From Minisyncoccia bacterium (GTDB lineage Bacteria; Patescibacteriota; Minisyncoccia; Phycocordibacterales; UBA918): DNA of 21,885 nucleotides. Positions 615 through 19,592 of the stretch are shown in pieces. The DNA is taken from assembly GCA_964229335.1 (NCBI GenBank), contig CAXRCZ010000011.1, forward strand, positions 1 to 21,885, given 5' to 3'. The notes under the pieces were generated by a model. The model worked only from the letters and a program-made list of their open reading frames with translations, was not told the DNA's origin and ran no database searches. Numbering within the stretch: the first letter of the stretch is position 1; each line of letters starts with the position of its first letter. Made by a program: the position numbers and the translations under genes.

Positions 615-1070
615 CTATGCCAGCTTCAGCACTTCTCGAAGCTCTTCCTCGAAATCGAAAGTATATTCGGTAGATTGAAGCGCTACGGTGTCACCATCGA
701 TGGTACAAGTTCCACCCCATTCGCCTGCATAAGTGTAGGTAATGTTGCAGGTTTTGGCGATGTCCGGAGGAATGGCTGTCTTGTCGATTGCCTGCAGCGA
801 TAATTCTCGCTCGAATACCAAATACATCTTGGTGGCCTTAGCACGATTTGCCATACCGATAACCTGTTTGTCGCCTTCCTTACGAACTCTGACTTCGTAA
901 GAAGTATTTATAACAACCATCGGTGGTTCACTGTCGTTAGCAAACGCCAGGGTGCGATATGTATACTCCGGACTCTGAATATCTGGAGATGTTTCGGCAG
1001 GTATTTCCTTAGCATCGCTACATGCTAGGAGTAGTACTACCGTGCTAATTATTAGTAGCTTCCTATACAT
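615..1070 (-). CDS. Hypothetical exported protein, probable lipoprotein
   Basis: 151 aa; basic N-terminus, hydrophobic stretch and lipobox-like LLA-C (Cys17). SD-like GAAAGGA 9 nt upstream. Confidence 0.65.
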   Translation of the reverse strand: MYRKLLIISTVVLLLACSDAKEIPAETSPDIQSPEYTYRTLAFANDSEPPMVVINTSYEVRVRKEGDKQVIGMANRAKATKMYLVFERELSLQAIDKTAIPPDIAKTCNITYTYAGEWGGTCTIDGDTVALQSTEYTFDFEEELREVLKLA

Positions 1071-1121
1071 CTAAATTCATCCTTTCGTTTTGATGTGAAT
1101 GCGAATAGGGTATCCTTTTAT

Positions 1122-1149
1122 ATTGTAGTATAAATCTCCAAAAAGTCAA
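1122..1149 (-). promoter_or_regulatory. Putative sigma70 promoter for the lipoprotein gene
   Basis: Minus strand TTGACT-16 nt-TACAAT. Confidence 0.55.
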
Positions 1150-1183
1150 TTTAAAAATAAAATAGTCAAGACTCAAGCAAACA

Positions 1184-1211
1184 TTGACTTTTTAACTCAT
1201 TTTGGTACTCT
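1184..1211 (+). promoter_or_regulatory. Putative sigma70 promoter for the rpsS-rplE unit
   Basis: TTGACT-16 nt-TACTCT with extended -10 TG. Confidence 0.6.
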
Positions 1212-1215
1212 AACG

Positions 1216-1536
1216 CCGTTCCAAACCTTTGTCGCATTTCTAGCTCACTGGAGCAAGAAGAACAAAAGAATAACGGAATGGGAATCCCTTCTAAGGCCGG
1301 CCGTTACCTGTCTTTACTAGGGATTCTCACTCAATCCGCCACTGAGCGGACTTTTTCAGTAAAAGTCTCCAATCAAGCGGTTTATCAAAAATCTATAAAC
1401 AACAAGGACTAACTGTAAGGGATGAAGTTCACGGAGTCTAGATTGATTGCGAGGAGCGGTATGACTATACCGCGACGAAGCAATCAGCCGTAACGACAAA
1501 GAAATTCGCCTGTACAGACCTGTCCGTACACACGAT
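1216..1536 (+). promoter_or_regulatory. Long structured 5' leader of rpsS
   Basis: About 320 nt non-coding with stems at 1216-1276, 1279-1329, 1336-1380 and 1406-1525. Confidence 0.5.
1406..1525 (+). repeat. Rod-shaped structured element (divergent member of the GAGG/ACRAAG-loop family)
   Basis: Nested stems GGAC/GTCC, CTGTA/TACAG, TTGATTGC/GCAATCAG and CGGTAT/ATACCG, with internal loops GAGGAG/CGACGAAG and CGGAG/GACAAAG. Confidence 0.5.
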
Positions 1537-1872
1537 ATGTCACGATCATTATATAAAGGTCCCTACGTAGATGAACGTCTACTAAAGAAGATCGACGGAA
1601 AGAAGCCTGGTGAAGGCGGCGCTATCAAAACATGGGCGCGAAATTCTGTCATTGCCCCAGAAATGGTTGGCTTTACCTTCGGTGTTCACAACGGAAAAGA
1701 CCACCTACCAGTCACCGTTACCGAAGACATGGTCGGTCACAAGCTCGGTGAGTTTGCCCCAACCAAGAAGTTCTGGAGACACGGAGGTAAAATGCAGAAA
1801 GAACTCGATATTAAGAAGAAAGAAGCTGAAATTGCAGCAGCCCGAGCAGCTAAAGCAGCGGCTAGTAAGTAA
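1537..1872 (+). CDS. rpsS: 30S ribosomal protein uS19 with C-terminal Ala/Lys-rich extension
   Basis: [12 protein letters not shown]...[22 protein letters not shown]...[12 protein letters not shown]. Confidence 0.98.
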
Positions 1873-5554: not shown

Positions 5555-6166
5555 ATGAACAAGCAAGAGATGAAATTCTGGGCACGCATGTTCGAAAACA
5601 CACCGAATATGACTTCTGAGGTGATGCAGGGCTGGATTGACAATCCCAAGGCCCTCAAGAAACTTCTGTCTGGACTCATTCCGGCAGAAACTCGCTTCAC
5701 CAGCCTGACCTCGCTCACGGTCGCCAGCAACACCGTCAACCCGTCCGATTTCTTCAAGACCCCTGAAGGTCTAGGGACGTCGAACAACTTCAACGACTTC
5801 ATCCTTTCGGGTGCGCGGAAGAAGAAGGTGTCGACGGATGAGACAACCATCCGCTATGCCGACTTGGCGCAGGCCGCCAATGACGCCGAGATCGGTGGAG
5901 AACTGCCTGAGGGCCATGTCTTTGAGGACGTCAATGTGTTCCTTGCCCATCTCGCGACGCTCATCGAGGGTCACTGGGGCGGCAAGGAAGGGATACTCCT
6001 CAACAACGGCTACGCCAACATCTTCTACGTGAAGGTGAACGGTGAAGTCTTCGCTGTCGACGTCCGCTGGCGCACCGTCAATCGGGAGTGGCACTGCTTA
6101 GCCGGTCGCCTCGGTGACGTTCGGTGGCGTGCTGGCGATCGGGCATTCTCGGCAACTGCCGCTTAG
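5555..6166 (+). CDS. Hypothetical protein inserted in the spc cluster; candidate DGR variable (target) protein
   Basis: 203 aa; SD AAGGAG at 5541-5546; visibly GC-richer than its neighbours. C-terminus LLNNGYANIFYV...V.VRW...W......W.AG.RAFS is encoded by an adenine-poor stretch. The ORF is well supported; the DGR role is inference. Confidence 0.7.
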   Translation: MNKQEMKFWARMFENTPNMTSEVMQGWIDNPKALKKLLSGLIPAETRFTSLTSLTVASNTVNPSDFFKTPEGLGTSNNFNDFILSGARKKKVSTDETTIRYADLAQAANDAEIGGELPEGHVFEDVNVFLAHLATLIEGHWGGKEGILLNNGYANIFYVKVNGEVFAVDVRWRTVNREWHCLAGRLGDVRWRAGDRAFSATAA

Positions 6167-8045: not shown

Positions 8046-8663
8046 ATGTCAGAAGAAAAACAGCAGGAAGCTACAACTGGAGTAACTACTCCAGACTCTG
8101 CCGCTCCAAAGAAAGAGTCGGCAACCGATGCACCAGCTGTCGCTACGGATCAGAAACGACCGCGCCGGCGACCAGGTGGTGATAAACGACAACGTCGACC
8201 ACGACGTGGTGGAAGAACTGAACGAGTTCGACCGGAATTTGATCAAAAGATTATCAGCATCCGCCGCGTAACTCGTGTTATGGCTGGTGGTCGTCGATTC
8301 TCTTTCTCAGTCTCAATGGTGATTGGAGACAAAAAAGGAAAAGTTGGTGTTGGAGTTGGAAAAGCTTCAGACACACAGCTAGCTATCCAAAAAGCGGCTC
8401 GAGATGCCAAAAAGAACCTAATCATTATTCCAATGAACAAAGATGGTCATATTCCTCACGACGTACACACCAAGTACGCTTCAAGTGAAGTGATGATTAT
8501 GCCAGCACCTGGTCGCGGACTTGTAGCTGGTTCGTCTGTCCGTACCGTCCTCGAACTGGGAGGAGTAAAGGATGTTACTGCGAAGATCTTTTCTCGCAGT
8601 AAAAACAAACTTAACAACGCACGCGCTGCTGTCGAAGCGCTCAAGCAACTAAAGAAAAACTAG
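8046..8663 (+). CDS. rpsE: 30S ribosomal protein uS5 with long N-terminal extension
   Basis: IRRVTRVMAGGRRFSF...GDKKGKVGVG.GKA...PAPGRGLVAG..VR.VLELGGVKD. Confidence 0.98.
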   Translation: MSEEKQQEATTGVTTPDSAAPKKESATDAPAVATDQKRPRRRPGGDKRQRRPRRGGRTERVRPEFDQKIISIRRVTRVMAGGRRFSFSVSMVIGDKKGKVGVGVGKASDTQLAIQKAARDAKKNLIIIPMNKDGHIPHDVHTKYASSEVMIMPAPGRGLVAGSSVRTVLELGGVKDVTAKIFSRSKNKLNNARAAVEALKQLKKN

Positions 8664-8664
8664 T

Positions 8665-9114
8665 ATGCAACTTCATGAACTAAAACCAACCAACAAGCGG
8701 AAAACCGCTAAACGAGTTGGTCGTGGTGGAAAGCGCGGCAAGACCTCGGGTCGTGGACACAAAGGACAACTAGCGCGTGCTGGTAACAGCACTCGTCCAG
8801 AAATGCGTGAGCTGATCAAAAAGCTACCAAAGCTTCGTGGTCACGGAACCAACCGAGCCCGTACCGTAAATGCAGAACGTGATCTACCAACCGTAGTAAA
8901 CGTGAGCGAGCTCGACAAAGCATTCGACGCAGGCGCCACTGTATCTCCTAAAACCTTAGTAGCCGCTGGTGTAATTAACTCTGTACGAAAGCGAGCGCCA
9001 AAAGTGAAGATTCTTGGAAACGGAGAACTTAGCACTAAATTACAAGTAGAAGATTGTCAGGTTTCAGCTTCAGCAAAAGAAAAAATTGAGAAAGCTGGCG
9101 GAAGTGTCAAATAA
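8665..9114 (+). CDS. rplO: 50S ribosomal protein uL15
   Basis: MQLHELKP...RVGRGGKRGKTSGRGHKGQ.AR...KILGNGEL...SASAKEKIEKAGG. Confidence 0.98.
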   Translation: MQLHELKPTNKRKTAKRVGRGGKRGKTSGRGHKGQLARAGNSTRPEMRELIKKLPKLRGHGTNRARTVNAERDLPTVVNVSELDKAFDAGATVSPKTLVAAGVINSVRKRAPKVKILGNGELSTKLQVEDCQVSASAKEKIEKAGGSVK

Positions 9115-9133
9115 GCGATAGCATAGACATATC

Positions 9134-10405
9134 ATGCAGAACTTCCTTCAAAAACTAAAAATAATCTTCACTGAACCAGCTATTCGCAACCGAATTCTCT
9201 TTGTACTATTTGCTCTCCTTATCTTCCGTGTATTGGCAGCTGTGCCAATTCCGGGAGTAGATCAGACGGTGCTAGAGCAATTCTTCACCAACAACCAGTT
9301 TCTTGGATTACTCAACATCTTCTCAGGAGGTGGGTTAGCTAACCTATCGATTGTGATGCTTGGGGTCGGTCCATTCATTACTGCGTCTATTATCATGCAG
9401 TTGATGACAGTAATGTCACCAAAGCTGAAAAGCTTGTACACCGAAGAAGGTGAAGCTGGACGCGCTAAATTCACTCAATACAGTCGTATGTTGACTGTGC
9501 CACTGGCTGTATTGCAAGGGTTTGGCTTCCTTACTCTATTGCAGAGCCAAGGAGTACTACCTGGTCTGTCGACCTTTGAGTTTGCAGTTAATGTAATCTT
9601 GGTAGTAGCTGGATCTATATTACTGATGTGGATTGGTGAATTGGTCACCGAATATGGGATTGGAAACGGTGTCTCTATCATCATCTTCGCTGGTATTGTG
9701 GCCAGCCTTCCATCAACAGCGAGTCAGTTGTACTTTGGCTTTGATCAATCACAATTGCCGCTATACATTGGCTTTGGAGTAGTAGCGTTAGCTATCATCT
9801 ATGCCGTTGTCTATATGACAGAAGCCGAGCGACCAGTGCCAGTCACCTATGCCAAGCAGAGTCGTGGAGGTAATACGTATGGGGGTAGTACTTCATACTT
9901 GCCACTACGTATCAACCAAGCTGGAGTTATCCCAATCATCTTTGCCTTGTCAGTGCTTTTGTTCCCACAAATGGTACTCAACGTCTTAGGTTCATTTGAC
10001 CTAGCTTGGACTACGACTGCCAATCAAGTTGTGACTGACTTCATGAACAATGCATGGTACTACGGAATCACTTACTTTATACTGGTATTCTTGTTCACGT
10101 ACTTCTACACCGCGGTCACCTTTGACCCGGATGCAATGTCCAAGAACTTGCAACGAAATGGCGCGTTCATTCCAGGTATTCGCCCAGGTGAGCGAACAGC
10201 CGAATATCTAGGAAATGTAGTTACTCGACTTACCCTAGTCGGAGCTATCTTCCTCGGTATCGTGGCGGTATTGCCAGTCGGTATGCAAATTATCACCGGT
10301 GTAGCAGCTCTTGCTATCGGTGGTACGGCGGTCTTGATTGTCGTGTCAGTGGTACTGGACCTAATCCGACGTCTCGACGCCCAAGTCTCACTTAGAGAAT
10401 ATTAA
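9134..10405 (+). CDS. secY: Preprotein translocase subunit SecY
   Basis: Polytopic membrane protein; LGVGPFITASIIMQL, GIGNGVSIIIFAGI, AGVIPIIFA, FIPGIRPG, IGGT..LIVV; follows rplO. Confidence 0.98.
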   Translation: MQNFLQKLKIIFTEPAIRNRILFVLFALLIFRVLAAVPIPGVDQTVLEQFFTNNQFLGLLNIFSGGGLANLSIVMLGVGPFITASIIMQLMTVMSPKLKSLYTEEGEAGRAKFTQYSRMLTVPLAVLQGFGFLTLLQSQGVLPGLSTFEFAVNVILVVAGSILLMWIGELVTEYGIGNGVSIIIFAGIVASLPSTASQLYFGFDQSQLPLYIGFGVVALAIIYAVVYMTEAERPVPVTYAKQSRGGNTYGGSTSYLPLRINQAGVIPIIFALSVLLFPQMVLNVLGSFDLAWTTTANQVVTDFMNNAWYYGITYFILVFLFTYFYTAVTFDPDAMSKNLQRNGAFIPGIRPGERTAEYLGNVVTRLTLVGAIFLGIVAVLPVGMQIITGVAALAIGGTAVLIVVSVVLDLIRRLDAQVSLREY

Positions 10406-10519
10406 TTTCTCCCGTGACTTTGTTGGACTACGATAACTTTTATCTCACCGTACGCTTGTACGACTCGAAAAAAGTTTTTTGTCCGCCTCGTCTCGAAAGA
10501 AATTTATCACTCTCTAAGT
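10390..10519 (-). repeat. Rod-shaped structured element overlapping the secY stop (antisense)
   Basis: Outer stem ACTTAGAGA/TCTCTAAGT. Minus strand reads GAGGC-GGAC...GAGTCGTAC-aagc-GTACGGTGAG...GTCC-AACAAAGT; the same motifs occur at 16897-17024. Confidence 0.75.
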
Positions 10520-10543
10520 AAAGTAATAAAAAGATAGTTGAAA

Positions 10544-10578
10544 TAAGAAAAAACAGCCCAGCGGGCTGTTTTTTCTTA
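10544..10578. terminator. Bidirectional terminator between secY and the convergent kinase gene
   Basis: TAAGAAAAAACAGCCC-agc-GGGCTGTTTTTTCTTA, perfect 16-bp arms. Confidence 0.85.
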
Positions 10579-10588
10579 CGTATGGTGC

Positions 10589-11158
10589 CTACTGGCTCTG
10601 CCACTTTTTAAATTCGGCGACGATGGTTGCCACCACTTTGTCTGGTTCGTTGCTTTCAGTATCTATTACTAAATCGTAGTTCTCTGGGTTGTAGGGATTT
10701 ACTTGATACAAATCTTGGTAGCGCTTTGTTTCACTAGCGAGTCGGTTTGCGAGGACTTCAGCATACTCTTCTGCGGTGGCTGGAATGTGTTCAGCGTGAC
10801 GGCGTTCTTCATCAAGTTTGTTCATGATACGTTCGGCGGCGGTCAGGAGATCGAGCTCTAGATAGACACGAAACGAATATGGCATCCAGTGCCACGCCAT
10901 CCGAGAATCAATCACTAGATTGTCTTCTTCCGCGCCCAAATCGCGGAGTTTCTGATCAACCAAGTGATCGATATCTTTTTCTTCTTCTGCTACTAGGTTG
11001 GTTTCCAACACGTCAATGCCGCGCTCGTTCCCAATTGCTCGGAAAAAATCTCCAGAAGAAAAATGTTGGTAACCGAGAACCTCAGCTACTTTTTTTGAAG
11101 TGGTGGATTTACCGCTCCCCGGTTTGCCAGCGATAGTGATAATCTGCTTTTTTTCCAT
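10589..11158 (-). CDS. cmk: Cytidylate kinase, archaeal-type family
   Basis: IITIAGKPGSGKSTT P-loop, SSGDFFR..G.ERG, IDHLVD, VIDSR.A, R..SE..RY..LY, YDLVIDT: pattern of the short archaeal-type CMP kinases. Confidence 0.8.
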   Translation of the reverse strand: MEKKQIITIAGKPGSGKSTTSKKVAEVLGYQHFSSGDFFRAIGNERGIDVLETNLVAEEEKDIDHLVDQKLRDLGAEEDNLVIDSRMAWHWMPYSFRVYLELDLLTAAERIMNKLDEERRHAEHIPATAEEYAEVLANRLASETKRYQDLYQVNPYNPENYDLVIDTESNEPDKVVATIVAEFKKWQSQ

Positions 11159-11242
11159 AATGTTGAGTAGAGTAGCATTTTCTTGAAATTTTATCTAACC
11201 GATGTAGACTAAGGCTTCATCACTAGCAGTCTAGTAAATTAT

Positions 11243-11836
11243 ATGGAACCAATCACCGTTATCTTTATCGGCCCACAAGGAAGTGGAAAGGGAACTCAAA
11301 TTCAAAAGCTTTTCGAAATCTTATCAAAGCGTGATCCAGCCCGCCGAATTGTCGATATCCAAACTGGCCGACGCTTTCGAGCTTTGGCTGCGAAGCACGA
11401 AACATTTGCCGAAAAGAAAGTAGCCAAGACGCTTGATAGCGGACAACTGCAACCGGACTTCTTGACGCATATTCTCTGGGGGCAAGCCATGCTTGATCAG
11501 CTAGACAACAAGAGTCACTTATTGATTGATGGTTTCCCAAGAACGGTAAATCAAGCAGAGGTGCTCGAAGATGCACTCGATTTCTTTGAACGTGAAGAGT
11601 TACAAATCATCAATTTAGATACGCCTGAAGAAGTAGTACGAGAACGGATGATGTCTCGAGCTCGTGAAGATGACACCAAAGAATCAATCGAGACAAGACT
11701 AGCTTGGTATCGAGAGGATACGCTTCCAGTTCTTGATTATTATCGAGTGCGGCCATCTACCACTGTCCATGACATTGATGGTACGCAGCAGATTGAAGCT
11801 GTTCATGAGTCAGTCTTAGAGGCTTTAAACTTATAA
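11243..11836 (+). CDS. adk: Adenylate kinase family NMP kinase, short-LID type
   Basis: GPQGSGKGTQ, TGRRFR, IDGFPRTVNQA, R.REDD...I..RL..Y; canonical position between secY and map. Confidence 0.88.
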   Translation: MEPITVIFIGPQGSGKGTQIQKLFEILSKRDPARRIVDIQTGRRFRALAAKHETFAEKKVAKTLDSGQLQPDFLTHILWGQAMLDQLDNKSHLLIDGFPRTVNQAEVLEDALDFFEREELQIINLDTPEEVVRERMMSRAREDDTKESIETRLAWYREDTLPVLDYYRVRPSTTVHDIDGTQQIEAVHESVLEALNL

Positions 11837-12609
11837 TGATTACAAAAAAAACAACCGAAGAAATTGAGGTATTGAGTGAAGCCGGGAGTATTCTAGCCGC
11901 TATGCTCAAGCGCTTGGGACAAGCCTGCTTGCCCGGGGTGACCACGCTAGAGTTGGATGATCTGGCTATGCAATTGGTCGAAGAGTACGACGTTGAACCA
12001 ATTCTTCTAGGGTATCATCCAGGATTTGCTGATCGTCCATATCCAGCTGCAGTTTGTATATCAGTCAACGAATGTGTTCAGCATGGTGTACCAAGTGAAG
12101 GGGTGGTTTTGGCTGAAGGAGATGTGGTTAACATCGATATGTCTATCGCTTATCAGGGTATGGTAGTTGATTCTGGCATCACTGTCGGAGTAGGTGAGAT
12201 AAGTAAAGAAGCTACGAAGTTACTCGAGGTCACAAAAGAAGCTTTGGCTCTCGGTATCAAACAAGCCAAACCAGGCAATCACATCGGAGATATCAGCCAC
12301 GCCATCCAAACCCTAGTCGAATCACGTGGATTGTCTGTAGTAAAAGTGTTGTGTGGCCACGGGGTTGGCTACGACCTTCACGAAGAGCCTTCTATTCCTA
12401 ACTATGGCCGAGCTGGTACTGGTCCAAAGATTGAAGTCGGTCACGTGTACGCTATTGAACCAATCGTAAACCTCGGCACAGACGATGTGTATTTTGATGA
12501 TGAAGGAGACGGGTATAGTGTCTACACGAAAGACGGCTCCTACAGTGCTCATTTTGAGCACACAGTAGCTATTACTGAAAACGGTCCAATGATTCTTACC
12601 AAAGAATAA
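11836..12609 (+). CDS. map: Methionine aminopeptidase type I
   Basis: CISVNE..QHGVP, NID...DSG.T, GHGVG..LHEEP, AIEP, SAHFEHT. Confidence 0.97.
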   Translation: MITKKTTEEIEVLSEAGSILAAMLKRLGQACLPGVTTLELDDLAMQLVEEYDVEPILLGYHPGFADRPYPAAVCISVNECVQHGVPSEGVVLAEGDVVNIDMSIAYQGMVVDSGITVGVGEISKEATKLLEVTKEALALGIKQAKPGNHIGDISHAIQTLVESRGLSVVKVLCGHGVGYDLHEEPSIPNYGRAGTGPKIEVGHVYAIEPIVNLGTDDVYFDDEGDGYSVYTKDGSYSAHFEHTVAITENGPMILTKE

Positions 12610-12678
12610 CCAACTAGATAACTATTTTGTAATTTTTTACCTCCCGGGCTATACTGCCACCACCTAATATTGAATTTT

Positions 12679-13266
12679 ATGGAAACACACCCACACCAAG
12701 AACGATCGCTAGTACTTCTCAAGCCTGACAGCGTACAACGCAGTCTGGTCGGAGAAATCATAAAGCGCTTTGAACAAACTGGCCTCAAGATTACCGCCAT
12801 GAAAATGATTGTCCCGAGCGAGGCGCAATTACTCGAGCACTACAACAAAGATGATGACTGGTACGAACGAAAAGGAAAAGGTATTGTCGAAGAGCTAGCC
12901 CAACAAGGTAAGGAGGTTGATAAGGAAGCGATTGAATACGGTAAAGACATTATTCGTACTATCGTGCACTACATGACGGCAGCCCCAGTGGTAGCTATGG
13001 TACTAGAAGGGAATAAAGCCGTGGCCGTGGTTTCTAAAATTGTCGGCAGTACTGAGCCAGCCACATCAGATGTAGGAACCATTCGTGGAGACTATACAGT
13101 TGATTCATACTTCCATGCCACTTACGAAAACCGGGCAGTCCGCAACTTGGTGCATCAATCAGAATCACCAGAAGAAGCCGAGCGAGAAATCGCCATTTGG
13201 TTCGATGACAAAGAAATGATGAAGTACACATCGGCGCAAGAGAGAATTCTCTACAACGCTGAGTAA
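12679..13266 (+). CDS. ndk: Nucleoside diphosphate kinase with an internal insertion
   Basis: ERSLVLLKPDSVQRSLVGEIIKRFE..G, G.T.P.....GTIRGDY, RNLVH.S; ATG at 12679; promoter-like TTGTAA-17-TATACT at 12627-12655. Confidence 0.95.
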   Translation: METHPHQERSLVLLKPDSVQRSLVGEIIKRFEQTGLKITAMKMIVPSEAQLLEHYNKDDDWYERKGKGIVEELAQQGKEVDKEAIEYGKDIIRTIVHYMTAAPVVAMVLEGNKAVAVVSKIVGSTEPATSDVGTIRGDYTVDSYFHATYENRAVRNLVHQSESPEEAEREIAIWFDDKEMMKYTSAQERILYNAE

Positions 13267-13300
13267 GAAAACGCTCCCATTATGGGAGCGTTTTCTTTTT
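13265..13300 (+). terminator. Intrinsic terminator after ndk
   Basis: AAGAAAACGCTCCC-attat-GGGAGCGTTTTCTTTTT. Confidence 0.85.
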
Positions 13301-13341
13301 CCTAAATAGTCTGTATAGTAAAACCAGAAAGGAGCCTTAGT

Positions 13342-13662
13342 ATGCGTTATTCTCACGAATGCGTAATAGCTGGCCTTGCACTATCAAGTTTTTTCTTTGT
13401 TCCGGTTATGGATTATCAACCAGCAGGTTTCACTTATGCACCCTGGTGGATCGAATATGTACTGATAGTGCCCGCCGTAACCAGTTTCCTATATTGGATA
13501 TGTAAAAAATATCCAAGAGCATGGAACCGTAGTCGCCACCTCAAGTTATGGTTGAGGTGGCGATTTTTCGTGTTACCATTATTAGTGGAACCACATCCGT
13601 ATGTTCCGGAATACATAGCATCAGGGCTGCCTGAACTCGCGAGGAGTAATGAGAACCAGTGA
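13342..13662 (+). CDS. Hypothetical small membrane protein
   Basis: 106 aa with 2-3 hydrophobic, Trp-rich segments; strong SD GAAAGGAG 7 nt upstream; bounded by terminators. Confidence 0.55.
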   Translation: MRYSHECVIAGLALSSFFFVPVMDYQPAGFTYAPWWIEYVLIVPAVTSFLYWICKKYPRAWNRSRHLKLWLRWRFFVLPLLVEPHPYVPEYIASGLPELARSNENQ

Positions 13663-13736
13663 TGGATTTCAGACACGAATCGGATAGGGTGCCCACCTGA
13701 TAAAAAAGTCAGGGAGCATGCGTCTGTGGTTCCATC

Positions 13737-13767
13737 AAAAATGCACCTCTTTGGAGGTGTATTTTTT
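13737..13767 (+). terminator. Intrinsic terminator
   Basis: AAAAATGCACCTC-tttg-GAGGTGTATTTTTT. Confidence 0.75.
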
Positions 13768-13790
13768 ATGGTAAATGCTACTATGCAGGT

Positions 13791-14165
13791 ATGATTCCGC
13801 GCCGCATTCTTTTCTTTGTTTTGTTAGCTGCGCTATTTGCTATGACTCATGCCTTTGCAGTCGAGACGGCTTTATACTGGTACTACCCGTCATTTGATAT
13901 CATCATGCATTTCTGGGGTGGTGCCTTGATTGTGTTTAGTGTTCAGGCTCTTTCGACATTATCTTTTTTTCCTCTCAAACCAAATTTCATTACTATCGCA
14001 CTGGTACTGGTACTGGTTATGGTTTCCTGGGAAGTATTTGAGCGCTCAGCTGGTCTCTACAATACTGAGACCTACATCTTTGACACCGCCAAAGACCTTA
14101 TAGTTGGTTCACTAGGTGCGGCAGTAGCCTACCTATTATTTACCTCCAAAAAAGAGACCGAATAA
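13791..14165 (+). CDS. Four-TM membrane protein, VanZ/DUF2238-like
   Basis: FDIIMHFWGG, WEVFE and DTAKDL..G..G motifs embedded in hydrophobic helices. Confidence 0.65.
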   Translation: MIPRRILFFVLLAALFAMTHAFAVETALYWYYPSFDIIMHFWGGALIVFSVQALSTLSFFPLKPNFITIALVLVLVMVSWEVFERSAGLYNTETYIFDTAKDLIVGSLGAAVAYLLFTSKKETE

Positions 14166-14204
14166 GCGACTTACAGATACACCGCTCCTTGCTATACTAC
14201 ACTC

Positions 14205-15566
14205 ATGGCAACCTTAGGATTTTATGGCGGTGTTGGATCAGTAACTGGGGCAAACTTCTTACTCGAGTGGGATGATAGCAAGGTCATGGTAGATTGCGGC
14301 CTTATTCAAGGTAGTGAATTTGCAGCAGAAGAGAACGCTGCCGCCTTTGCCTATGACCCTACAAGTGTCGACGTTCTATTGGTTACCCATGCTCACGCTG
14401 ATCATATTGGTCGTATACCAAAGCTTGTAAAAGAAGGGTTCAAGGGAGTTGTTTATTCAACACCAGCCACCAAAGACTTAGCCGCTGTCATGCTAGCTGA
14501 TGCGGTCAAGGTGCAGCAGTACGAAGCAAAAAAAACTAATCAAGAACCACTGTATGATGAGTCCGAGGTAGCAGCCAGTCTCAGCCTCTGGAAGGTACAT
14601 GGCTATGAAGAACCTTTTACAATCGCGGAAGATATAACGGTAAATTTTTACGACGCCGGTCACATACTAGGCTCAGCCATCGTCGAGCTGACTCGTAATA
14701 ATAAAAAGATAGTGTTCTCTGGTGATATTGGTAATGTGCCGCAACCGCTTTTGTCGCCACCAGATATACCTACTGACTATGACTACATGGTGATGGAGAG
14801 CGTGTATGGAGATCGCTCGCACGAAGGAGTCGAAGAGAGAACAGACCTACTAAAATCTCACATCGAAGACACTATCAAGAAACAAGGAACATTAATTATT
14901 CCCGCGTTTTCACTCGAGCGGACACAAGCTATTTTGTTTGAAATCAACAATCTAATTGAGAATGGGGAAGTGGAATCGATTAATACCTATCTTGATTCGC
15001 CGTTAGCCATTGCTGTCACAGAGATATATCGAAATTCGACTGAGTACCTTAAGCCAACTATTCAAAAACAAATTAAAGCCGGCGACGATATCTTCGAGTT
15101 TGATGGGTTATCTTTTACCGAAACAGTCAAAGAATCAAACAAAATCGCCAATACACCAGGAGCCAAAATCATCATTGCTGGCTCGGGCATGAGTCATGGC
15201 GGTCGTATCAGACGCCACGAACGAGAGTTTTTGAGCGACCCTAGCACCACTTTATTACTGGTCGGCTACCAGACCACCGGTAGCCTGGGGCGTAAGCTAC
15301 AAGACGGCGCAAAAGCAGTCTATATAGATGGTCAAAAAGTAAAAGTTAAAGCGAAGATTGCGGCTATTAGAGGGTTCTCCGGCCACGCAGACCGCGAACA
15401 GTTAATTGATTTCGTACACCAAGGCAACGGACAAAACGCCAAGCAAATATTCGTAACCATGGGGGAAGAACGAGCCTCGCTCTTCTTGGTGCAGCGCTTA
15501 CGGGAATATTTGGGAGCAAAGGCGATTGCACCGGAACTTGGTTCGAAGATAGAGATAGATTTTTAG
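14205..15566 (+). CDS. MBL-fold beta-CASP nuclease (YSH1/CPSF73-like bacterial family)
   Basis: VDCG, THAHADHIGR, AGHILGS, FSGDIG, MESVYG, IPAFSLER.Q, AGSGM..GGR, FSGHAD. Confidence 0.92.
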   Translation: MATLGFYGGVGSVTGANFLLEWDDSKVMVDCGLIQGSEFAAEENAAAFAYDPTSVDVLLVTHAHADHIGRIPKLVKEGFKGVVYSTPATKDLAAVMLADAVKVQQYEAKKTNQEPLYDESEVAASLSLWKVHGYEEPFTIAEDITVNFYDAGHILGSAIVELTRNNKKIVFSGDIGNVPQPLLSPPDIPTDYDYMVMESVYGDRSHEGVEERTDLLKSHIEDTIKKQGTLIIPAFSLERTQAILFEINNLIENGEVESINTYLDSPLAIAVTEIYRNSTEYLKPTIQKQIKAGDDIFEFDGLSFTETVKESNKIANTPGAKIIIAGSGMSHGGRIRRHEREFLSDPSTTLLLVGYQTTGSLGRKLQDGAKAVYIDGQKVKVKAKIAAIRGFSGHADREQLIDFVHQGNGQNAKQIFVTMGEERASLFLVQRLREYLGAKAIAPELGSKIEIDF

Positions 15567-15567
15567 T

Positions 15568-16158
15568 ATGGAAGTGTATGCTTTTAAACTTTTCGCTACT
15601 ATCCTCGCAATTTTGCTGATGGTGACAGCGTATGTGCCGTATCTCAGAGACTTATTTAAAGGAAACACCCAACCACACACCTACACTTGGCTGATTTGGG
15701 CAATTACCGCTTCGGTAGCTACGGCAGGGGTCTATGTGGGTGGTGGTGACTTAGGTTTTTTTCCAATGCTGGCAGGAACCTCAATGGTAATTTTTGTATT
15801 GATTTTGTCTCTTAAGTACGGTTCAAAAAACATCACGACTTCAGACACTCTAACTTTGATTACAGCTCTCCTCGCAATAGTTATTTGGGTACAGCTAGAG
15901 AATCCTTTGCTGGCTGTCATGCTCGTTACCATAATTGATGGATTGGGATACATTCCAACTTTTAGAAAGGTATATCAGGAACCGATGAGCGAAACACGAT
16001 TATTTTGGTTTTTAATAACAGTCAGTTATTTATTTAATATCTTAGCTTCTGCAGAATTTAATTTACTAACTGCTCTGTACTTAACAACCATAGGAGGAAT
16101 TAATATTTGTTTATACACCTTTATTACTCTTAGGAGAAAGAATATTGCTAGAATATAA
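15568..16158 (+). CDS. Multi-pass membrane protein, PQ-loop-like repeat
   Basis: About 7 hydrophobic segments; two related units VPYLRDLFKG..QP...TWLIW and IPTFRKVYQEP.SE...W. Confidence 0.65.
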   Translation: MEVYAFKLFATILAILLMVTAYVPYLRDLFKGNTQPHTYTWLIWAITASVATAGVYVGGGDLGFFPMLAGTSMVIFVLILSLKYGSKNITTSDTLTLITALLAIVIWVQLENPLLAVMLVTIIDGLGYIPTFRKVYQEPMSETRLFWFLITVSYLFNILASAEFNLLTALYLTTIGGINICLYTFITLRRKNIARI

Positions 16159-16192
16159 AAACCGCCGGACGTACGTCCGGCGGTTTTTATAT
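16153..16192. terminator. Bidirectional terminator forming a perfect 40-bp palindrome
   Basis: ATATAAAAACCGCCGGACGT|ACGTCCGGCGGTTTTTATAT between convergent genes. Confidence 0.85.
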
Positions 16193-16213
16193 GGTACGTA
16201 CTTAGGTACGTAC

Positions 16214-16558
16214 CTATTTTACGGCTTCAACAACGCGGTTAAAGGCTTCTGGGTTTTCTACAGCGAGGGTAGCAAGCACCTTGCGATTTAGTTCGATGTT
16301 CTTGTCCTTGAGCATCTTGATAAACCGACTGTACTTGATGCCGTGGGGCATAAGAGCGGCGTTAATGCGGACGGTCCACAGGCGTCGGAAATCACCCTTT
16401 TTGTCGCGACGGTGATTAAAAGCGTGCAGTTGAGCGTGGTAGATTGCTTCGCGAGCTGCTCGCTTTTTCTTTGAGCGTTGTAGACGATATCCTTTTGCTT
16501 CATCGAGGATATTTCGTCGTCGTTTCTGGGCCATTAGGCCTCCTTTTACACGTGCCAT
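16214..16558 (-). CDS. rplT: 50S ribosomal protein bL20
   Basis: MARVKGG...AKGY...RRDKKGDFRRLWTVRINAA...YSRFI..LK...IELNRKVLA.LA. Confidence 0.98.
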   Translation of the reverse strand: MARVKGGLMAQKRRRNILDEAKGYRLQRSKKKRAAREAIYHAQLHAFNHRRDKKGDFRRLWTVRINAALMPHGIKYSRFIKMLKDKNIELNRKVLATLAVENPEAFNRVVEAVK

Positions 16559-16600
16559 GGTAAGTAATGTTGGTTAATTAGTAATCAAAACTAGGTTTGC

Positions 16601-16792
16601 TTAGGCTCCTGATTTAGGAAGAAAGCGTCGGGTAACTCGTTTTGGAAGAGAGAGGTTCTGGGTTCGTTTGCGACCGAGTCGTTGTTGGCCAGTTTGACGA
16701 GCGTTAAAGTGGTTTTGACCAGGCTTGCGCGCCACCAATTTTCCATTTTTGGTTACTTTGATTCGCTTTGTGTATGATTTATTAGTTTTCAT
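16601..16792 (-). CDS. rpmI: 50S ribosomal protein bL35
   Basis: MKTNKSYTKRIKVTKNGK...GQNHFN; lies between infC and rplT. ATG at 16792 preferred over the ORF-track TTG at 16831. Confidence 0.93.
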   Translation of the reverse strand: MKTNKSYTKRIKVTKNGKLVARKPGQNHFNARQTGQQRLGRKRTQNLSLPKRVTRRFLPKSGA

Positions 16793-16840
16793 AGAGATAG
16801 GTGTGATCGGGCATTGCCTGGGAAACGGCAAAGTGGCAGA

Positions 16841-16869
16841 AATATACCGTATTTAGAGGTTTTCCGCAA
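16841..16869 (-). promoter_or_regulatory. Putative internal promoter for rpmI-rplT
   Basis: Minus strand TTGCGG-17 nt-TATATT. Confidence 0.55.
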
Positions 16870-16896
16870 GTAAAAACGGGAAATTATTTTATAGCT

Positions 16897-17024
16897 TAAG
16901 AAATATATTGATTGCTTGTAGCATGAGGCGAGCAAGCAAAATAATGTGAGGCGTATTAAGTTATACGGTGAGAATTATTTTGCGCCGCTCAACAAAGTGA
17001 TACGGGCAATATAGACATTTCTTA
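16897..17024 (+). repeat. Rod-shaped structured element overlapping the infC stop (antisense)
   Basis: Stems TAAGAAAT/ATTTCTTA, ATTGCTTGTA/TACGGGCAAT, GAGC/GCTC, GCAAAATAAT/ATTATTTTGC and CGTAT/ATACG; motifs GAGGC, GAGGCGTA...TACGGTGAG and AACAAAGT. Confidence 0.75.
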
Positions 17025-17702
17025 TATGATGCCGCCTTCGATGTCCATTAGTTCATCCAAAGACTTTTTCTTGGGCTTATGTTGTGGTTCAGCAGCGTCA
17101 CCAGAGGCTGTTTTGTCAGGTTTATCTTCATCCAACACTTTTACTTTCTGTGCTTTTTGCTTACCTTCTTTTTCTAGGGTAGTAGTAAAACCTTTTGGAC
17201 TTTTCTTGATTGGATCAGCGATTTTGTATTCTGCTGGAATGATTTTTAGGAATCGTTCGAGACGTTCTTTCAGAAAATCAGGTTCCATGTACTTGTATCG
17301 TCCCCATAGGAACAAGTCGACTTTTACTCGATGTCCTTCGAGTAACCATTCAGCCGCACGGCGAGCTTTTAGTTGCTGGTCATGATCTCCTGTACCGATT
17401 TTTACCTGCACACTTTTGGTTTCGGTGACGTGAGCTTTGGCCTTGGCTTTGCTCGCCTTACGCTTGGTTTCGTAGCGGTATTGGCCATAATCAGTGATTT
17501 TGGCTACCGGCGGCTTGGCGTTCGGTGAGATTTCAATCAAATCGAGCTTACGCTTTTCAGCTTCTTTCTTGGCGTCTGCGAGAGAAAGTGTACCCAGGTT
17601 TTCTCCTTCAGGCCCAATAACCCGCAATTCAGGCGCTCGAATAGCTTGGTTTATCTTAGTTCTAGTATCTTTTCTTGAAAATTTTCTTCCCTTGTTTTGC
17701 AA
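17022..17702 (-). CDS. infC: Translation initiation factor IF-3 with C-terminal extension, non-ATG start
   Basis: INQAIRAPELRVIGPEGENLG...LDLIEISPNAKPPVAKITDYGQY.YE...HD...K......L.EGHRVKV; upstream of rpmI-rplT. Exact start is uncertain. Confidence 0.95.
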   Translation of the reverse strand: MQNKGRKFSRKDTRTKINQAIRAPELRVIGPEGENLGTLSLADAKKEAEKRKLDLIEISPNAKPPVAKITDYGQYRYETKRKASKAKAKAHVTETKSVQVKIGTGDHDQQLKARRAAEWLLEGHRVKVDLFLWGRYKYMEPDFLKERLERFLKIIPAEYKIADPIKKSPKGFTTTLEKEGKQKAQKVKVLDEDKPDKTASGDAAEPQHKPKKKSLDELMDIEGGII

Positions 17703-17802
17703 ATTAGTGGGGCTTAATGAATAAATTGTGCCGGTGAATCAAAAGTATTTTAAAGTGTCATGACTGTACCATAGCCTCGCGAAACTGCAACTAGCGCTAC
17801 GC

Positions 17803-18186
17803 TTAGCTCGTACAGCTTGAACACCGGCATCCAGTTGGCTCGATGTATTGTTCAAAATAATCTTTGCCGTAATGAACGGTTAGCTCCTCACCAGCTTTGA
17901 TAGCTTTTTTTGCGATAGCAAACGCTCTAGTCTCAGCTTCGTTTAGTTCGAAAAAACAATTTGGTTTGCAGGCGTGATTAATATAACGAGCAATATTAGT
18001 GCGAGACTTCCCGTCGATAACTCTTTCACTATCGAGGGTGAGAAGATATTTTCCACCGCGCTCGTTGGCTTCATCTTCGGTAATAGTTTCGCCAATATAT
18101 TCAATGATTTGCTCACCCTTTTTAAAATCTTGATTGGCATAGAGACCCAATCCAGCTCGACTTTTTTTCACCACGACTTGATTCAT
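17803..18186 (-). CDS. SET-domain protein (putative protein-lysine methyltransferase) with post-SET cysteines
   Basis: GLGLYA, IIEYIGE, ARYINHACKPN, I.AGEELTVHYG, CRCSSC. Confidence 0.92.
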   Translation of the reverse strand: MNQVVVKKSRAGLGLYANQDFKKGEQIIEYIGETITEDEANERGGKYLLTLDSERVIDGKSRTNIARYINHACKPNCFFELNEAETRAFAIAKKAIKAGEELTVHYGKDYFEQYIEPTGCRCSSCTS

Positions 18187-18281
18187 TGGTCGCTAGTATA
18201 ACAGAGCTTTTTGCAGATAACAGGGGTGTCAATTTGTTACCAAATCAAGCGAGCGAGGATGCTACTATAAATTCAGTAAGT

Positions 18282-19592
18282 ATGAGAACCGGAGATGGGA
18301 CATCTAAGAAACCAATGATTCAGGCCACGTTGGTCTTTTTCGTTTTACTCACACTCCTTACACTATTTGTCATGGTTCATGAGTTCACTGATTATGAACT
18401 CAAGTTGGTAGTGGTTGGTGCTATTTTTATATTCAGCACTTTGATTGCTGTCATTGCGTATCACAGCGCAAAGAATGACACTAAAAATGACATCAAATAT
18501 GACCTTGGTCTAGACATCACCCCGCTATCACAAGAGTTGTACAGTAAGTTGTATGAAAACAGCCCGGTACCGTATTTGCTTATAGATCAAGAAGGAAAGG
18601 TGATTTCTTCTAACGTGTCGGGAGCAAGAATGCTCGGTGTCCCAAAAGAAAAACTTCGTGGCTTCAACATCTTTCAAAGAATTGAGTCCGATGAAATGGG
18701 TCACATCGAACTACTGATTGAGAAGTTTCAGCACGGTATTTCTATCGGCGACGAGACAGTTAGAGTGACGCGACCAGATGGTAGTGCTAGTTGGGCGCTC
18801 TTATCTCTATATCAATTTGTCTCAAGAGCCAAAGAAAACCTCGGACTTTTAACGCTCGTCGATATCACTAAACAAAAAAGAATTGACGAAGCAAAAACCA
18901 ACTTCGTATCTCTAGCCTCACACCAATTACGAACGCCTATCGCAGCTATTAAGTGGAGCGCAGAGTTATTACGAATGGAAGGAGCCAATCTGACCAACCG
19001 GCAAAAAAAGTACACCGACCGCCTCCTCATCGGAACACAAAGAATGGCTCTGTTGGTGGATGACTTCTTGCGCGTGTCACGCTTTGAGTTGGGTACGTTC
19101 CAGTCAGAATTTAGTTCAGTAGAAGTGTCAAAACTAGTGGATGATATTTTGCTTGAACAGACTCCACGAATTAAGCAAAAAGAACTAATAGTCAAAAAGT
19201 TTTACGATCTTTCACTACCGCCAATTGTGTCTGATGCGCACTTGTTGCGAATGATTACCAGCAACCTGCTTTCAAACGCCGTTAAATACAGCCGACCAGG
19301 CGGAATTATTCATATCGGGTTTAATCGCCAGGGAACAGACCTAGTATTGTCGGTGGCTGACAACGGAATCGGCATTCCTCCTACCGAACAGAGTCAAATC
19401 TTTACCAAATTGTATCGCGCCACCAACGCTGCTCGGACAGAGCCGGATGGTACAGGGTTGGGACTATATATTGTAAAAGAGGCCGCCGAAGTGCTCGACG
19501 GCCGCGTCACCTTCACTTCAACTGAAAATGTCGGGAGTGTATTTGAAGTCCAGCTACCAGTAGTGGAAGCTACGCAGCCAACTGAGTCTTAA
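18282..19592 (+). CDS. Membrane-bound PAS-domain sensor histidine kinase
   Basis: Two N-terminal TM helices, PAS region, H-box SLASHQLRTP, N-box NLLSNAVKY, DNGIGI, GTGLGL. ATG 18282 follows TGcTACTAT (ORF-track TTG 18186 is unlikely). Confidence 0.93.
   Translation: MRTGDGTSKKPMIQATLVFFVLLTLLTLFVMVHEFTDYELKLVVVGAIFIFSTLIAVIAYHSAKNDTKNDIKYDLGLDITPLSQELYSKLYENSPVPYLLIDQEGKVISSNVSGARMLGVPKEKLRGFNIFQRIESDEMGHIELLIEKFQHGISIGDETVRVTRPDGSASWALLSLYQFVSRAKENLGLLTLVDITKQKRIDEAKTNFVSLASHQLRTPIAAIKWSAELLRMEGANLTNRQKKYTDRLLIGTQRMALLVDDFLRVSRFELGTFQSEFSSVEVSKLVDDILLEQTPRIKQKELIVKKFYDLSLPPIVSDAHLLRMITSNLLSNAVKYSRPGGIIHIGFNRQGTDLVLSVADNGIGIPPTEQSQIFTKLYRATNAARTEPDGTGLGLYIVKEAAEVLDGRVTFTSTENVGSVFEVQLPVVEATQPTES

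Follow-up and report, generated by a model that had tools for sequence, protein, structure and literature searches.

A family of ~125-bp palindromic repeats with ERIC-type loops lying in one orientation at stop codons

Results

Rod-shaped repeats at the ends of secY and infC

The window analyzed here is a stretch of 21,885 nucleotides (contig CAXRCZ010000011.1) from the 741-kb genome of a Minisyncoccia bacterium (G000; contamination 7.5%). It contains secY at 9134..10405 on the plus strand and infC at 17022..17702 on the minus strand, both named by NCBIfam. The stop codon of secY (10403-10405) lies within a rod-shaped palindrome at 10390..10519, the motif strand of which is the minus strand, antisense to secY (103 bits). 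A second rod, at 16897..17024 with its motifs on the plus strand, starts at the stop codon of infC (107 bits). The first-pass annotation had reported this pair, and both rods were found where it had placed them, with the named stems paired as described and with AGGCG, GAG.CGTA, TACGGTGA, and CAACAAAG in identical order and spacing.

On the motif (minus) strand of the secY copy, the outer right loop motif (CAACAAAG, 10417..10425) lies in the arm facing the gene, the apical module (10444..10466) holds the tandem G.A, the G.T pair and a CGTAC/GTACG stem, and the outer left loop motif (10484..10489) is GAGGCG with a lone G-C pair. The apical CGTA..TACG.TGAG part may resemble Rickettsia palindromic elements. 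The outer 9 bp of this copy are the last codons of secY paired with the far arm. The outer stem had been said to take in the gene end in both copies; the secY copy does include the last four codons and the stop, and the infC copy includes the stop codon only.

Folding was predicted for both strands of each copy. For the secY copy, the minus strand folded at -46.9 kcal/mol (z -7.7) and the other strand at -37.9 kcal/mol (z -5.9). For the infC copy, the plus strand folded at -42.0 kcal/mol (z -5.4) and the other strand at -35.0 kcal/mol (z -6.05), so that despite its weaker energy the sense strand had a slightly stronger z score (-6.05 vs -5.38). None of 200 shuffles was as stable as the rod for either copy. 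The proposed preference for folding on the strand antisense to the gene thus held in energy at both sites.

A bidirectional, terminator-like hairpin was seen by eye at 10544..10578, apart from the rod, between secY and a convergent (d)CMP kinase gene. It had been annotated as a separate terminator; the hairpin is there, and the terminator scan has no entry for it, probably because its T run is absorbed into its stem.

A third copy of the rod, overlooked in the first-pass annotation, was found at 1403..1525 on the plus strand (63 bits), 12 nt upstream of the start codon of rpsS (named by NCBIfam). This copy is an exception to the stop rule described below and has an ortholog in a second genome, G007. 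The ribosomal protein cluster of this region begins at rpsS without a preceding rplB (window 615-1537), and a GC-rich gene of 203 codons lies between rplE-like and rpsN-like genes (window 5555-6166); these genes were named by eye.

Copies, covariation and distribution of the family

Model searches confirmed the rods at 10390-10519 and 16897-17024 as real copies of a repeat family of ~125 bases. A model built from 8 copies found 17 copies in the 741-kb genome, and a model built from 44 copies found 19. Two of the 19 are identical copies in a duplicated rpsA region: rpsA, its neighbours and the rod occur twice, identical and inverted, on contig C7 near 21437 and 105155, which reflects either a duplication that happened recently or an artefact of assembly. 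Every one of the 18 genomes of the same genus that were searched carried matches, 2-78 each. Elsewhere in the order, one of 12 genomes of other families had matches, as did 16 of 150 genomes across the phylum, four of which had 8-14 copies.

An exact pattern scan of species genomes gave 121 loci from about one sixth of the collection, from which the total was estimated at ~810 stretches. The covariance model scored 76 of 80 of these loci at E 0.05 or better, a rate that applies to pattern-selected loci and is not a blind one. The titles of the matching entries were mostly of Patescibacteria (Kaiser-, Zambryski-, Lloyd-, Sacchari-, Uhr- and Peribacteria); further titles were Nitrospira, Deltaproteobacteria, Clostridia, Gammaproteobacteria, and Anaerospora hongkongensis DSM 15969. 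All five genomes tested from such titles carried 5-22 copies, with 11 in A. hongkongensis DSM 15969. Taxon labels need care, because the genome titled Nitrospira (L145/G193) is 0.6 Mb; its copies are Patescibacteria-like, and the label may be wrong.

Most copies were 121-128 bp in length. In the alignment of 44 copies, which was fitted to the model and contains the 8 training copies, 94% of cells were paired; shuffles gave 67.5% and slid controls 34-49%. Of the 27 pairs, 25 had changed on both sides. The covariation around fixed loops that had been noted from two copies therefore held in this larger set. Among 83 cross-phylum matches, also aligned by fitting to the model, 88% of cells were paired; one of five covariation measures was not above shuffles (20 vs 19.8 pairs) and the others were. 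The loops were the invariant parts, namely the tandem G.A and G.T pair under the apical stem and the lone G-C between two small loops, while the stems varied freely.

Rfam gave no match at either window copy (E up to 5) and none in 14 loci, and blastn gave none in phage and plasmid collections. Two scans of viral contigs returned three pattern matches, none of which was scored by the model. We found no description of the rod family in the literature, where the supplements of PMC2996986 (Geobacter multicopy sequences) and PMC11602168 (a MITE catalogue) and subscription papers may contain one. The initial description of the element as undescribed stands for the family, which is new and uncatalogued in Rfam, but not for its kind: size, loop grammar and strand bias are common to ERIC/IRU, and this is an ERIC-type palindromic repeat.

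Other repeat structures were observed in these genomes. On contig C1 of G000, a further long rod at ~24120-24270 (L007) has a nearly perfect outer stem and loops of a different kind, and the models did not match it. In Anaerospora G194, rods at L311-L314 occur within composite stacks of other repeats, 200-450 bp in length.

One arm of the rod faces the gene end

For position and strand, the whole of G000, together with 400 kb of G007 and 725 kb of G018, gave 113 profile matches; seven of these (long nested or partial forms and a duplicated copy) were removed, which left 106 copies for analysis. In 84 of the 106, a gene of at least 90 codons ended 46-71 nt from the centre, always into the CAAC-side arm. 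Random placement of the copies in their own gaps would give 15 such cases, and a gene ended into the other arm only once. Among the remaining 22 copies were some beside short genes, tandem second copies and about six, such as the rpsS copy, that stood beside start codons. Fusion to stop codons of core genes, as first proposed, thus applies to about four in five copies, and a few copies adjoin start codons.

Judged by local GC skew, the 84 stop-abutting copies belonged to leading-strand genes in 65 cases and lagging-strand genes in 13, with 6 unclear, against a background of 970:350. Because the rule holds on both kinds of genes, the orientation follows the gene and not the fork, and a replication-strand rule was rejected. 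The motif strand was the better-folding one in 105 of the 106 copies as RNA and in 102 as DNA, and in the model-fitted alignment G.T outnumbered A.C by 82 to 23. Upstream genes, of which 69 were scanned, were varied housekeeping genes. We rejected a cis-regulatory RNA of one gene family, as these genes are diverse and the fold favours the strand opposite the mRNA. TGA was the stop beside two of 77 copies, compared with 9-13% of stops genome-wide.

Distances from centre to stop were bimodal, with 17 copies at 46-53 nt and 67 at 56-71 nt. Where the stop lay inside the rod (the 17 copies), 7.41 of the last 9 coding bases were matched by the far arm, whereas swapped gene ends gave 4.61 +/- 0.2 with a maximum of 5.35 in 500 draws; the S9 gene is an example of such paired C-terminal codons. 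The other 67 copies had no excess far-arm match to the last codons (4.18 vs 4.21). At secY of the window, the far arm follows the gene, because the gene has the REY end that is usual in the genus. The reverse was also observed: altered C-termini were present at 11 of 41 filled secY ends and at 5 of 51 empty ends.

The stop triplet was mirrored exactly in 23 of 63 assignable copies of the far class, once as TGA/TCA. TA was present at the mirrored end of 27 of the 63, followed by G in 10, A in 8, C in 7 and T in 2. Since the stop was mirrored in 23 of the 63 and the base after the far TA was not limited to A or G, there is no clean TA duplication.

At four secY 3' ends (L062, L065, L064, and L043), we observed terminators that share a stem with the middle stem of some rods, two of them with the apical CGTAC as loop. 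These terminators may be collapsed rods.

Mobility and turnover

Most copies were old. Mean identity was 56-62% within genomes, and nearest neighbours in G000 were 60-67% identical. The rpsG and rpsS copies were orthologous between G000 and G007, and orthology spans deep splits. Selection would therefore be needed at each locus, which fits a host function too. Copying between unrelated genes was seen in G018, where pairs of copies at unrelated genes were up to 88% identical, one of them over exactly 125 bp from TA to TA. Related copies had the core in common and were wholly different in the outer 18-20 bp; one young pair did have this part in common.

Rods had arrived repeatedly in the last codons of secY or just past its stop. 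Among 92 distinct secY ends, 41 were filled, a count from a profile that misses some decayed rods, and filled and empty ends were interleaved on a tree of 30. The secY genes of L340 and L336 are 97.6% identical, yet they carry different rods. The L340 rod lies inside the last codon, and the final 5 bases of its far arm are the target flank copied in inverted orientation. At L047, a new rod has come to lie between ATG and the old gene end, which is preserved; this rod contributes new codons, and an older rod follows. At L360, half of an old rod has given way to a new one, which abuts the right half that is left. The arrivals had no fixed target and no clean duplication, and the two clearest insertions, L047 and L340, are not at TA.

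Empty sites in relatives had been proposed as a check on mobility. No clean pre-insertion allele was found among the loci compared; the closest, at secY of G007, looks like loss by deletion, because a far-arm remnant remains. An apparent empty site in G198 C106 was dropped on account of an N gap there. Three contig sets from one study contained no joint or empty allele over window 8500-18500. Cores were exchanged between loci in Anaerospora: between G194 and G198, whose genes are 81-86% identical, orthologous rods kept the frame and swapped cores, and 30-nt partial duplicates of the left arm were found beside the stop. The 88% pair at unrelated genes, the new secY rods in close relatives and the exchanged cores indicate indirectly that the family is mobile. 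The mobile hairpin at gene ends that had been put forward at the outset is in keeping with these signs.

Seven disjoint young pairs were compared over 288 stem pairs, of which 16 had changed to another Watson-Crick pair on both sides, where ~1.4-2.1 were expected. The rate of change per site was 0.12 in the stems and 0.37 in the apical loops (35 sites). Template switching is a published route to double stem changes (bioRxiv 10.1101/2021.04.15.439925). The excess of double changes and the far-arm match can also be explained by selection alone.

Candidate partner enzymes

A co-occurring HUH transposase or reverse transcriptase had been suggested as a companion of the rod, and neither was found to track it. 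Of 30 genomes with the element, 17 had a Y1 transposase, as did 6 of 11 genomes without the element and none of four genomes of the second rich family; no rods flanked the Y1 gene at six loci. IS630-type DDE_3 was found in none of 41 genomes, and reverse transcriptase in two of five. Y1, IS630 and reverse transcriptase were each rejected as the partner, as none tracks the rod. RAYT-like Y1 genes with flanks free of rods were observed next to dnaJ, at a site common to G018 and G007 (L263 and L265). None of the 69 upstream genes was named as a transposase, with 17 belonging to no family.

A search of 1.87 Mb for an autonomous form made of half-elements around a gene yielded nothing but rods that carry an insert of 85 nt in the loop. 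The insert is a second repeat of ~85 nt with three hairpins, well conserved in the apical loop of rods with differing stems (G018 C3 52998-53201; C1 97893-98097; C4 69650-69854 and 73489-73693). It also occurs free, for example at 97363-97437 of G000 C4. We take the end of this repeat to resemble IS200/IS605-type ends.

Comparison with known repeats

ERIC/IRU/RU-1 of enterobacteria is a 127-bp imperfect palindrome (PMC2229807 and PMC2759123). The rod family is alike in being a multi-copy intergenic rod of similar length (here 121-128 bp, 2-78 copies per genome). Both have a tandem G.A and a G.T pair below the apical stem, with a lone G-C separating a 2x2 from a 2x3 loop, and the motif strand folds better in all 12 ERICs of E. 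coli K-12. Beside a stop, four of the 12 presented the same arm and two the other arm; adjacency to stops is far tighter in the rod family. The 12 K-12 copies are 84% alike by column, whereas the stems of the rod family are free, and TA termini with a TA target duplication were not found in the rod family.

Sequence comparison gave no likeness to ERIC. With model R2, the aceF-lpd ERIC scored 9.7 bits (E 4) and K-12 contained no match; motif matrices reached 14.8 against a null maximum of ~21, and nhmmer gave no ERIC match. A structural descriptor, written after seeing both ERIC and the rod family, matched the inner motif in 12 of 12 K-12 ERICs and the inner and outer motifs in 4 of 12. It had no other match in 50 kb, with null rates of 0.38 (inner) and 0.0 (both) per 50 kb. 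In the rod family it matched 62 of 106 copies by the inner motif and 53 by both, with none on the opposite strand. Because loops and strand bias are shared, sequence tests fail and the TA rule does not hold, we concluded that the rod family works like ERIC and is not an ERIC member by sequence or TA rule.

Other families were compared by description. Rickettsia RPE-1 is given in PMC2229807 as a long stem-loop of 105-146 bp with in-frame fusion to genes, and it resembles the rods in size, stem-loop and in-frame gene fusion. RPEs are often inside genes, whereas the rods are at gene ends. REP/REPIN elements with RAYT (HUH Y1) are non-autonomous palindromes near stops, and REP ends can supply stops (PMC3733652 and PMC3184786). 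From them we borrow, by analogy, the model of a hairpin that a protein reads on one strand, and apply it to the rods. REPs differ in being 20-40 bp with a tetranucleotide tag and in flanking their transposase, whereas Y1 genes in rod genomes are neither rod-flanked nor co-occurring with rods. YPAL/RU-2 and CIR share insertion beside gene ends or dyad symmetry, YPAL also without a TA rule. They were set apart by their description in PMC2229807, YPAL by its 168 bp and direct duplications of 3-26 bp, and CIR by its two separate arms and GANTC site.

Discussion

The repeat described here is a non-coding palindrome of ~125 bp with ERIC-type loops, in one orientation at stops. Its loops are fixed and its stems vary freely, one arm lies at the gene end, and the better fold is on the non-mRNA strand. 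On balance, we favour the reading that it moves as a hairpin of single-stranded template-strand DNA, the loops of which would be read by a trans-acting enzyme. The loops would then be a recognition code on single-stranded template-strand DNA for this putative enzyme, and something tied to transcription or translation, not to replication, would steer insertion to gene ends. Arm-to-arm copying by template switching, together with selection, may hold the stems paired and the rod at ~125 bp, and the same copying could extend the far arm over the last codons, sometimes sealing the rod to them. Old copies would persist long at a locus as part of 3' untranslated regions, where some middle stems may act as terminators.

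Several other explanations were weighed. It is unlikely that the rod is a domesticated structure of mRNA 3' ends, tuning termination, ribosome recycling or decay and spread mainly by gene conversion. Such a role would suit copies that stand between stop and terminator beside housekeeping genes, the persistence of orthologous copies, the sense strand that still folds in the window copies (z -5.9 and -6.1) and the middle stems that are terminator-like in some rods. It would also suit reports that ribosomes stall at REPs within 15 nt of the stop (PMC12306157) and that ERIC affects mRNA stability depending on its orientation (PMC2229807). However, in 105 of the 106 copies it is the non-mRNA strand that has the G.T pairs and tandem G.A, the descriptor matches none on the mRNA-side strand, more than half of secY ends have no rod, and the copy number ranges from 2 to 78 within one genus. 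A host DNA site at the ends of strongly transcribed genes, such as a cruciform or hairpin for a topoisomerase or another housekeeping enzyme, would likewise account for an orientation that follows the gene and for fixed length and loops, and gyrase binding by REP/BIME is a precedent (PMC3184786). We regard it as highly unlikely in view of the patchy spread of the family (16 of 150 genomes in the phylum, one of 12 in other families of the order) and the turnover at single loci.

If the rod were a classical MITE with TA as its target and an IS630/Tc1-like transposase as its mover, with the stop codon supplying the TA and selection purging other insertions, this would explain the young pair that spans TA to TA, the rarity of TGA stops beside copies and the six secY alleles that end in MRE-stop, as though inserted into a Tyr codon; ERIC itself has TA ends and duplications (PMC2229807 and PMC2759123). 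This explanation is distinctly unlikely, as the outer stems, which would be its terminal inverted repeats, are not conserved between copies, the base after the far TA is of all four kinds, one TGA stop is mirrored by TCA, L047 and L340 are not at TA, and DDE_3 is absent from the 41 genomes. The first-pass annotation had also offered an antisense RNA or protein-binding module. A small RNA of this sort, transcribed opposite the gene end, agrees with the antisense side of the better fold and with G.U and tandem G.A, which are common in RNA. We give it very little credence: in the window, the bidirectional terminator stands between the rod and any convergent transcript, such a terminator is usually found on the side from which the antisense transcript would come, 10300-10700 contains no promoter-like site, and convergent genes carry one copy each.

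The mechanism by which ERIC-type repeats move is described as not established in PMC2229807 and PMC2759123. We also considered a broader idea, which we regard as rather unlikely: ERIC, the rod family and perhaps RPE might be one cross-phylum class of gene-less DNA hairpins that can do without their own transposase gene. Their tandem G.A loops would be read on the template strand by a conserved machine of the cell, which would deliver the hairpin to sites of translation termination and rebuild the outer arm by copying the target. If this were true, each insertion would rewrite the last codons of a gene or seal itself to them.

The strong covariation calls for caution, since part of it may stem from mutation and concern the DNA strand, and it is no proof of a functional RNA. 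By keeping the ERIC loops while its stems vary freely, the rod family isolates the features that matter. The cultured host A. hongkongensis DSM 15969 and the ERICs of E. coli make tests of binding, orientation and mobility feasible. The family presents near-exact targeting of stop codons and insertions that follow no TA rule, and in streamlined genomes it rewrites the C-termini of essential proteins.
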